Assembly (NCBI GenBank): GCA_951804945.1
Contig: OX638153.1
Span: forward strand, 56,792,001-56,856,000
Source of the DNA: Podarcis cretensis
Taxonomy: Eukaryota
Reading direction: 5' to 3'
DNA length: 64,000 nt
The notes beneath the pieces were generated by a model, which did not search any database, had not been told where the DNA came from, and saw only the letters and a program-made list of their open reading frames with translations. The stretch's first letter is position 1, and each line of letters begins with the position of its first letter. The translations under genes and the position numbers were made by a program. This document shows positions 28,901 through 31,900 of this stretch, one piece after another.

Positions 28901-31900
28901 TGTTTTGTAGGTAACAAAATCACAGCACATTGATCAACACAGAAACAATTCATTGACACTAGAAAGACTGAACTCTACCGACTTAGATATTAAACATGGA
29001 CATGATCATGACTTGTTGTTCCTATCTTTGTTTCAGTTGCATCACTTGAGATTTCTGTTTGCTGATGGTGTGGATGACTTAAGCAATATCATGCAATAGT
29101 TGCATGCAATTCTTACATGAATGGACTGTGCACCTCTGTTTAGTTTTAAAGAATCATTCAGAGAGTTGCCAATGATCAGTATCTCTGGGACTTGTTAGTA
29201 TCAAATGAGATACAGATTGCAAATGGCATGTACACAGTGTCCACAGAGAACTGGCACCCAGGAGCTCCTGCGTTATTTAATTAAAATGATTCTTGGACAC
29301 CTGCTCATGTTAACAAGTTTAACCACACCTGTTCTGAAGGGATATTTGCTTTGAACATGGAATTTCTTGAGATATTTATTGACACATCCACTGAACAGTA
29401 CAAAATGAAGTTAATATTTGAACAAGGTCCAAAGTCATTGGAGTTAATAAGATAGGAAAAGGATATTTAAAGTAGTTAACAGAGAAGCAATAAGTCTTAC
29501 GAAGCTGGGACAGGGGGTGCTGTCTTCAAACGAACTCAATCTGTTTAGGCGTATGCTTTACATGTTTATAGCTGCTTGTTACTTTACAGTGCTATTGCAG
29601 GCAATGGGTTCTTGATAGCAATAAAAACCTGTGTTTTGAAGAGATCTCTTGCCAAATCCTCAAATTGCTTTTTGAAATTGGGACTATAAAAGAGTAGTTT
29701 TGAGGTCCTGGAGAACATTTCTGGAGATGAAATAGATACATAAAATGTGTTCTCAAACAGCCATTGAATTAAAACTTTAAAGCCCCTAGCTTGTTGCAGC
29801 TAAAGAAAACACATTTTGATACTTTTTTCTGTTTATTTCTAGGTAGACATAATATGTGGTGATCACCTGCTGGAACACTATCAGACTTTGAGGGAAATCC
29901 AGCGAGCTCTAGGGGAGAGTGCAGTGCAGGTAAGTTGATGCCACAGCTGCAAGGGAATTGCCTCTGGTGTTCCTGCCTCAGCCTCCCATACACTCCTTGG
30001 GGAGATAGCCAAGCATGGCATTTGCTGGGAAAGCTTCAGAGTTGTGAACCTTTAAGGCAAAAGTGTGCATGAGTCCAGCAGTGGCAATGGCTGAAGTGGA
30101 GCGTCTGGCTTTTACCACCAGCAAGTTTGCCTGTGTGTACAGATGAGCACCTCCCTTTTGTGTGGAAGACACTGCTCCCCACTGTTTTGGGGAGGAATGT
30201 TGCAGCAGCACTGTTGAGGCAGGACAAGAGTATTAAAATATAGCAAAAAGGGGTGAAGAGAAACAGGTGTCAGGTGCACCAGTTAAACATCATAGCATGT
30301 GTTTCTCCTTCTCTTGCTTACCTGTGTGAGGTGTAGCTGTTGAAGTGGAATGGGGCTGGATGTACAGTATGTGTCCAGTGAGATACGTATTAGGATTCTG
30401 AGATAAGAAATATTAGCAATGTGTTCAGGTTCCCATGTGTGTTCTGAGGCCAAGTGCATCTAATGATCTTTTGATGTGGACAGAGTGGTCACTGACTTAA
30501 GCGAGAGGGAAATCTTATGCCAGGTATGGCATTGATGTAAAGTTACCTGCCAACCAGGATTGAAGGGCTATAGGATACAGCGCAAGTGTGCTCCTCCTCT
30601 GTACTATTCTGCCTTGCCCATGACTCCACCCCATTTTATCTGTTCTGACAGCATTCTGTTGTGCTGCTGGCATATTTAGAAGCTGGCCAGTATAGCAAGC
30701 CTTCAGCCAAATCCTATAGCATCTTAGCCAACAGAACTTAAGTATAGGACTGCTTCTTAAGTCTAACTGAGTCTTCATGTAGTGCTTAAATGGCTTCTAC
30801 CAGCACATTACTTTTAAAAAATAAACAAATTTCAGGTATCTGAAGAAGTGTGCATGCACACGAAAGCTTATACCCAGAACAAATTGAGTTGGTCTCTAAG
30901 GTGCTACTGGACAATTTTTTAATTTTTTAATATATTTTGACTGCATCAGACCAACACGGCTACCTACTTGAATCTAAATTTCAGGCTGTTATGGTTTAGA
31001 GCATTGTTGTTTTTAATGAAAGCAGTCTCTCCCAGTCTAAAGACATAAAAGGGTATATCATGGATCTCCTAGTAGGTTGAGGAAAAGGAAAATTCACCAA
31101 CTCTGTTATCCTTGGTGAATGTACTCTGATCTAGGCATACTGCAGGCTAAGCATGTGCTTCTGCATTCACAGATCAACCCTGCTGAACAGGTGGTTGGCT
31201 CTGTCTGCTTTGTATGCACTAATCATTTGTTAGGACAGTGGTGGGCAGAGTGTGCATCTAGAATCAGAACTGACAATGCTGATCTTGTACTTTAGCATTC
31301 AAGAGTACTGTGCACATAGTGATAGCAGGTGCTGGGTGCAACCGCTGCCCATTGTAGGGCAGGATTATTTTGCATACTCTGGTCACATCTAGAACAGCAG
31401 TCATTGTAGAAGCCTCTTTCTACACACATATTGTCTTTGCTTGATCACAGCAGTAATGTAGAATTCTTACCACTTTTTAAAATCGTACAATATAAGGACA
31501 ATTGAAAATAAAAAAATAAGATACAGCTTATAATCTGGTGGCTCTTTTAATCAAATCTAAGGATAGCTTGCTGAATTACTGAATTAAAATAACCTGTTTT
31601 ACAGGTTGAATTGTTCATTTCTCACTTTGGTGCATAAGTGCTAACTTTGCATTCTAGACAAGGTGTCAGAATGAAGTGTAATCAGTAGAGAAAGGTGTTA
31701 TACAGCAGTACATTTTAAAAAAAATTATTTTGCTTATAGGTGATGTTTTGTTTGATGTTGTAGATCTTTTCTAGCCAACACATCTCCAACATTTGAACAC
31801 AGTATATGTCAGAAGAAGTCACAATCACAGCATTGCCTTTCACACCTAATAGTAGCCTGTCAGGAAATTGTGACAGACTTATGGCAAGGTTAAACCTATC

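Follow-up and report, generated by a model that had tools for sequence, protein, structure and literature searches.

The last intron of the gene PCGF6 contains a 40-nt stretch that reads as a complete minimal hammerhead ribozyme in the sense orientation. The question that it raises is whether this motif cuts the host pre-mRNA or was left in the intron by a retroelement and travels with the transcript as a silent passenger. The motif, its host gene, the repeat that carries it and the relatives of that repeat were analysed in the window, by which we mean the whole 64-kb stretch of DNA under study, and in the 1.51 Gb genome.

Sequence and predicted fold of the motif

A sequence check showed that the 40-mer, its coordinates, its plus strand and its full core are as the earlier note on this DNA had described them. 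All core nucleotides are present, namely C3, U4, G5, A6, N7, G8 and A9, then G12, A13, A14 and A15.1, and U16.1 and H17, with U at position 17. A U at this position is permitted by the NUH rule (PMC2238771, PMC3884650). The features of minimal PLE (Penelope-like element) hammerheads are also found, these being a helix I of 4-5 bp, a G10.1-C11.1 pair that closes helix II and an extra base between positions 9 and 10.1. There is no helix III, and in its place, as had been claimed, stands the AGCU palindrome, with palindromic positions 15.1-16.1 that could pair in a dimer.

Folding of the 40-mer gave stem I with 5 bp together with stem II at -10.4 kcal/mol (z -1.95), and 9 of 200 shuffled sequences folded equally well. 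In contexts of 230 and 450 nt stem I had predicted pair probabilities of 0.60-0.76 and stem II of 0.81-0.94. Two structural details of the earlier description have to be amended. Stem II is indeed a palindrome but in the fold its 5 bp enclose a loop of 4 nt, where 6 bp and a 2-nt loop had been described, and stem I does fold with 5 bp but its fifth pair is derived from the host, since G30835 lies inside a target-site duplication. Rfam models returned no hammerhead match in the 64-kb window at the gathering score, and at E values up to 10 the four matches in the 1.1 kb round the motif (30300-31400) included no hammerhead. The Infernal search that had been suggested as a check therefore does not work for such a minimal form. 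By this measure the motif does not belong to the canonical type I hammerhead families of Rfam, whose gathering threshold it does not reach.

The host gene and its last intron

Judged from its sequence, the host gene is PCGF6. The best PDB match of the RING exon is PCGF6 (2djb, E 3e-15). The Pfam matches to the RING and RAWUL domains were below the curated cut-offs because the exons were scanned singly, and a PDB search with the second-last exon alone gave chance matches only. The search for coding exons yielded nine; a further short one, which the frame demands between 13946 and 17468, was looked for there and not identified. The motif lies in sense in the last intron, as stated before, while the name intron 9 given to it is not fully established; it depends on a count of ten exons, which we take from the human gene model. 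In one RNA-type contig (X1, n=1), from organism A, whose allele may or may not carry the insertion, the last intron is spliced out with a normal exon join.

The insertion and its sibling copies

The motif forms the 5' end of a 139-bp insertion that has a 10-bp target-site duplication on either side (Table 1), and G30836 is common to the element and the duplication, a microhomology of 1 nt. The insertion was found in DNA contigs of organisms C and D, which are approximately 2-3% apart, so that it has persisted, and no joint of an empty site across it was present among the joints listed in eight contig runs. A tandem of the non-LTR retrozyme type is ruled out because this is a solo copy with unique flanks. 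The tail (30933-30975) contains the first codons of the frame of the element; compared with the 5' pLTR of the full-length element L091 described below, the older subfamily does not have the first ATG of the young one. On the antisense strand of the tail most copies of the subfamily have a sequence that resembles a splice donor, CAG/GTAGGT, in which the window copy has one base changed.

Table 1. Positions in the window of the motif, the copies of the repeat and the surrounding parts of PCGF6
Feature	Position	Strand	Remarks
Minimal type I hammerhead motif (PLE min-HHR)	30835..30874	+	Sequence reading and folding
Stem I of the motif	5' strand 30835-30839; 3' strand 30870-30874	+	Core map
CUGAAGA; extra A; stem II (palindromic)	30840-30846; 30847; 30848-30861	+	Core map
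GAAA; AGCU palindrome; U17	30862-30865; 30865-30868; 30869	+	Predicted cut 3' of U17
5'-truncated solo PLE copy (pLTR + tail), 139 bp, older U17 subfamily	30837..30975	+	
Left target-site duplication AAATTTCAGG	30827..30836	+	Last two G are the 5' end of stem I
Right target-site duplication AAATTTCAGG	30976..30985	+	
Head-to-head two-arm copy, same subfamily, in the preceding PCGF6 intron	24459..24638	.	Stem II palindrome is the point of fold-back
Head-to-head copy of the C17 subfamily, outside PCGF6	57384..57633	.	G12 lost in both arms
Second-last coding exon of PCGF6	29843..29929	+	
Last PCGF6 intron, holds the insertion	29930..32833	+	GT..AG, 2904 nt
Last PCGF6 exon, coding part to the stop codon	32834..32902	+	

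Among the five arms of the family in the window only the one at 30835-30874 has an intact core, which agrees with the claim that it is the single hammerhead-derived arm with an unmutated core. CUGAAGA is missing from both arms of the copy at 24.5 kb, and G12 has been lost from those at 57468 and 57536. The copy at 24.5 kb retains only the substrate half of a hammerhead (24528-24540), and this half is wholly paired in a predicted hairpin of -94.7 kcal/mol. The point of inversion in this copy is the stem II palindrome, and the resulting hairpin of 64 bp, 92% paired, lies within the PCGF6 pre-mRNA, where it is a possible substrate for editing of double-stranded RNA. The target-site duplications of the 24.5-kb copy (24449-24458 and 24639-24648, AAATTTCAAG) match AAATTTCAGG at 9 of 10 bases, and the two insertions, of the same subfamily, are 6.3 kb apart in PCGF6; the duplications at other loci are unlike this pair. 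In the copy at 57384-57633 short repeated starts of the hammerhead lie between the arms.

The source element is a Penelope-like family

Longer copies of the repeat continue on their upstream side into a GIY-YIG frame of the same orientation, and four loci with long frames (L091-L094) were retrieved. The full element at L091 has an open frame of 925 codons (2520-5294, minus strand) with Pfam matches to RVT_1 (E 2.4e-11) and GIY-YIG (E 3.4e-5), both above the cut-off, so that the RT and a C-terminal endonuclease are in a single frame as in EN+ PLEs. A Zn-finger linker of the form CX4CX2C, with the sequence CNKPRCQLC, precedes the GIY-YIG domain in all four loci, and it conforms to the linker CX2-5CxxC between RT and EN that defines Neptune and is common to Nematis (PMC8557442). 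The element at L091 has two direct pLTRs about 3 kb apart, each with the hammerhead in sense, and an inverted pLTR upstream that also carries a hammerhead. Direct pLTRs together with an inverted truncated pLTR occur in L091, L092 and L094, and with the optional tail and the short target-site duplication (10 bp at the window copy) they complete the arrangement of an EN+ PLE.

These results bear out the proposal that the motif is a minimal type I hammerhead of a PLE pLTR, and the assignment that would have told against it, to a DNA-transposon family unrelated to PLEs, does not hold; a DNA-transposon origin of the repeat is ruled out by the GIY-YIG frame and by RT plus GIY-YIG in the full-length relatives. 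L091 is located at C2:71846000-71855900 of the genome, where the 925-codon frame is intact and the pLTRs are 99.6-100% identical. This identity and the many identical endonuclease matches indicate that the burst of the family is very recent or ongoing.

Copy number, subfamilies and variation

Exact matches were counted in the genome with the reversed sequence as control. The 40-mer has 54 exact copies and its reversed control none, and therefore it is not a chance sequence. The 31-nt core with any allowed cleavage base has 8,419 exact copies, again with none for the reversed control, which gives 0.36 expected per 64-kb window; 489 of the 8,419 have U17. A DNA search of the genome found 2,050 candidates, and 40 of these were given a score; for the GIY-YIG protein there were 2,294 candidate places.

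Two samples of copies were compared, one of mixed subfamilies (80 arms from 70 stretches, covering most of 100 listed places) and one of the subfamily of the window copy (74 arms from 70 stretches of 100 listed places). Both have their anchor downstream of the motif and consist of the places that come first on contig C1, so that they are not random; arms close to the edge of a stretch were excluded, as were identical duplicates, and the two samples have one arm or more in common. The base at position 17 is U in 53 of 62 arms of the window copy's subfamily and C in 67 of 76 arms of the mixed sample. All seven motifs in the four retrieved loci have C17, and all seven have TGTAT before the core, which leaves a stem I of 4 bp, while the fifth pair of the window motif uses G30835 from the host target DNA. 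U17 marks an older subfamily. The cut predicted earlier, 3' of 30869, lies at position 17, where the base is U and the full-length elements have C.

The full motif is intact in 34 of 60 (mixed) and 9 of 34 (subfamily) of the arms that reach C3, that is, in 26-57%. Compared with the majority sequence of its subfamily, the window copy has no change at 39 positions inside the motif and 5 at about 95 alignable bases outside it, a difference that is not significant (Fisher P 0.32) and that was obtained with a copy picked for its unchanged motif. In the mixed sample core positions vary less than other positions (3/594 versus 36/1620, P 0.005), and the figures for the subfamily sample are 6/328 versus 35/918 (P 0.10). 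The most likely explanation for the low variation of the core is selection on the master elements together with leftover differences between subfamilies; selection on the copies may also play a part.

A proposed origin of the short copies

The 5' ends of the copies are not spread evenly. Among the 154 sampled arms 52 begin at -7 to -1 from C3, and only two begin at the cut site (+28 to +32); the calls may move by a few bases through chance matches. The density at -7 to -1 is 3.7 ends per base in each sample as against 0.06-0.34 just upstream. Longer copies have a TATA box whose first base lies 30 nt before the A of a TCAGT at -7; a putative TATA/Inr pair is known from the pLTR of a rotifer PLE as well (PMC3846280). 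It is likely, from 52 against 2 of the 154 arms, that the short copies come from uncut transcripts, and possibly the transcript starts at the 5' edge of the ribozyme and its cap is reverse-transcribed.

In exact C17 motifs GTATC is preceded by T, the state of the full-length elements, in 4,722 cases, by G in 1,015, by A in 348 and by C in 192; among the bases other than T there is a strong excess of G. When the extra G at -5 was classified in 43 arms that start with G, by a scheme blind to direct versus inverted pieces, it was unclear in 24, part of a neighbouring element piece in 10, additional to such a piece in 5 and part of the target-site duplication in 4. The simplest reading of these sequences is that the G is owed either to the cap or to G matches where the cDNA joins the target. 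No report of a cap-derived G or of a pile-up of starts in PLE copies was found in the literature covered, which is a part of the whole.

We propose that the element would be transcribed from the TATA/Inr promoter with a start at the 5' edge of stem I, that RT would initiate internally, at the tail some 135 nt further downstream, and proceed until it reached the 5' end of a transcript that is capped and has not been cut, and that the cDNA would then join the target through a short G match. If this is the case, a copy would begin exactly at the ribozyme and, by joining through a host G, stem I would gain its fifth pair from host DNA. The starts at the 5' edge could also reflect stalling of RT, or fold-back of the cDNA, at stem I in place of a transcript start. 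In the cDNA the two strands of stem I are complementary to each other, and fold-back too would add a G at -5; moreover, a few contigs of other copies contain head-to-head joints at 30835/30869 and 30836/30870, and inversions are also centred on the stem II palindrome, as in the 24.5-kb copy. We nevertheless regard stalling or fold-back as rather unlikely, given that stem I has just 4 bp in the full-length elements, that a large number of copies extend past it (T at -5 in 4,722 of 6,277), that a 12-nt fold-back was found in none of the 43 G-starting arms, and that a TATA/Inr pair with standard spacing indicates the same place. The map of 5' ends is in line with the finding in vitro that the template is RNA which has not been cut, and it predicts that transcripts start within a few bases of stem I.

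Potential for cleavage within PCGF6

In a monomer helix III would need an A15.1-U16.1 pair closing a 2-nt loop, which the energy model forbids. With a model that has no term for the hammerhead core, and therefore understates the active fold, the productive dimer was calculated at -17.5 kcal/mol, two monomers at -20.8 and a duplex through stem II at -37.8. Self-cleavage of the window motif would thus probably need a dimer or help from a protein, as judged from the model and from related elements. The minimal hammerhead of Schistosoma shows no cleavage as a monomer and low cleavage as a dimer (PMC4209133), and that of the Anolis element PAc is cut only with the protein of the element, is dispensable for insertion and leaves no RNA-seq ends at its cleavage site (PMC11167929). 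The in vivo role of PLE hammerheads is described as still open (PMC8557442, PMC11167929).

No intact second motif was found in the PCGF6 pre-mRNA. The only other sense arm in the gene is the half-partner at 24528-24540, whose predicted probability of being unpaired is 0.00, and the antisense arm of the same copy could pair with the window copy at -113 kcal/mol in the energy model and unfold it. Rates of cleavage for U17 versus C17 were not found in the literature that was looked at; U17 sites are cut more slowly than C17 sites. The literature covered likewise contains nothing on PCGF6 together with a ribozyme.

The motif is a PLE pLTR hammerhead, brought into the last PCGF6 intron by a truncated copy of 139 bp, and based on these findings we consider it very probable that it is a silent passenger there. 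The AGCU would be unable to close helix III in a monomer, so that cutting would need a second motif and probably the protein of the element as well, and the self-complementary stem II would favour an unproductive duplex. With no intact second motif in the pre-mRNA and helix III not closable in a monomer, the copy is expected to be silent in PCGF6. What tells against this reading is that the insertion has persisted in organisms C and D and that core positions vary less than others among the sampled copies.

The earlier note had suggested that the copy is cleaved as a dimer in the PCGF6 pre-mRNA and so affects splicing of the terminal exon or turnover of the RNA, in other words that the host has domesticated it. 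The intact core, the sense orientation, the stems predicted in context and the presence of the insertion in two organisms would suit such a role, for which there is a precedent in conserved intronic hammerheads of amniotes such as that of RECK (PMC6155905). Still, the suggestion is left unsupported and we consider domestication extremely improbable: PCGF6 contains no intact partner, a hairpin keeps the half-partner fully paired, the antisense arm could unfold the copy, and the copy has neither the helix III nor the loop contacts that active intronic hammerheads possess. A regulatory role also fits poorly with the normal splicing of the intron in contig X1, whichever allele that contig represents, with the position of the copy as one of 8,419 cores, with the frequency of intact motifs among sampled arms that reach C3 and with a conservation that is not significant. 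Hammerheads of the RECK type are recognised by a helix III that closes in the monomer, which the model does not allow here, and by low copy number with conservation over long distances, whereas here the copy number is high and the site is common to a close relative only, as far as compared.

A more modest effect would be that the intronic copies are conditional substrates which the protein or RNA of an active element, for example in the germ line, cuts in trans at a low rate with little consequence for PCGF6. The family is young and active, with many identical endonuclease matches and intact long frames, and its sequence occurs in RNA-type contigs; the core bases of the window copy are all intact, its U17 fits the NUH rule (PMC2238771, PMC3884650), and the PAc hammerhead does cut on addition of protein (PMC11167929). 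However, two molecules would have to meet within the lifetime of the intron, the prediction gives the productive dimer a lower stability than its alternatives, and arms beginning at the cut site are only 2 of 154. Moreover, even the RNA of the PAc element has no reads ending at the site, and the protein-binding region of PAc is the first 172 nt of its frame (both from PMC11167929) whereas the window copy keeps the first codons only. For these reasons we think that cutting in trans is quite improbable. It is very unlikely, too, that an expressed RT-endonuclease or element RNA completes intronic half-ribozymes in trans and so cuts host pre-mRNAs such as that of PCGF6. If it were true, a transposon could switch on the cleavage of host transcripts after seeding thousands of intact hammerheads, many of them in introns.

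Comparison with known hammerheads and PLEs

The window motif resembles the minimal PLE hammerheads of Cervera and De la Pena (2014, PMC4209133) in its type I core, its helix I of 4-5 bp, the extra base 9/10.1 and G10.1-C11.1, as well as in the palindromic 15.2-16.2, the lack of helix III, the location in pLTRs and the occurrence mostly as solo motifs from truncated PLEs. Such motifs are known from fishes, Xenopus (about 9,000) and reptiles, among which a turtle and snakes are named (PMC4209133). The window copy differs from them in U17 and in the host-derived fifth pair of helix I, and its helix II is a perfect 14-nt palindrome of 5 bp with a 4-nt loop, as against 7-8 bp in Schistosoma (PMC4209133).

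PAc (Poseidon_Ac) of Anolis carolinensis (Frangieh et al. 2024, PMC11167929) is likewise a reptile EN+ PLE with a hammerhead in the pLTR, a tail from internal initiation of RT and uncut RNA as the main template. PAc is a Poseidon element whereas the window family has the CX4CX2C linker, a trait of Neptune and Nematis; the first in-frame ATG is about 100 nt downstream of the core in the window family and at the start of stem II in PAc; and protein-assisted cleavage has been demonstrated in PAc (PMC11167929). With the EN+ PLEs of Neptune/Nematis type (Craig et al. 2021, PMC8557442; Arkhipova et al. 2013, PMC3846280) the family has in common the RT, Zn-finger linker and C-terminal GIY-YIG in one frame, the direct pLTRs with an inverted 5'-truncated pLTR, an optional tail and a target-site duplication of 8-10 bp, and also 5'-junction microhomology and a putative TATA and Inr in the pLTR. 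The window copy, in contrast, is the pLTR end only, and it is by the linker that the family is placed with Neptune/Nematis.

The intronic hammerheads in RECK, C10orf118/CTCL and DTNB of amniotes (PMC6155905, PMC10761166) are also of type I, in host introns and of retroelement origin, and the RECK hammerhead silences a reporter in HeLa cells. They are conserved across amniote classes, are drawn with tertiary contacts and are active alone, whereas the window motif is minimal, has no helix III and belongs to a young high-copy repeat. Non-LTR retrozymes (bioRxiv 10.64898/2026.07.22.740005) are similarly non-coding and PLE-derived with a type I hammerhead, and about 43% of their copies in Xenopus are intronic. 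They consist of tandem units with a motif in each, unlike the solo truncated copy of an autonomous family that we have described.

Significance of the family and neighbouring features

As a feature of PCGF6 the motif has little importance, being one passenger among thousands. The family is of more use: this genome has 8,419 exact cores together with full-length elements that are intact, and the two subfamilies have different bases at the cleavage position.

Some other features of the window were recorded. In the long second-last intron of PCGF6 there are transposase-like open frames on the minus strand (25073-27362) with a weak match to BED/Spin-doc zinc fingers; this element is separate from the PLE and is presumably a hAT-like remnant. 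An intermediate-filament exon (Pfam Filament) lies at 47503-48651 on the minus strand, and a gene with a TFIID NTD2 domain is found at 3063-6605 on the minus strand, head to head with PCGF6. By synteny we take the former to belong to INA and the latter to be TAF5.
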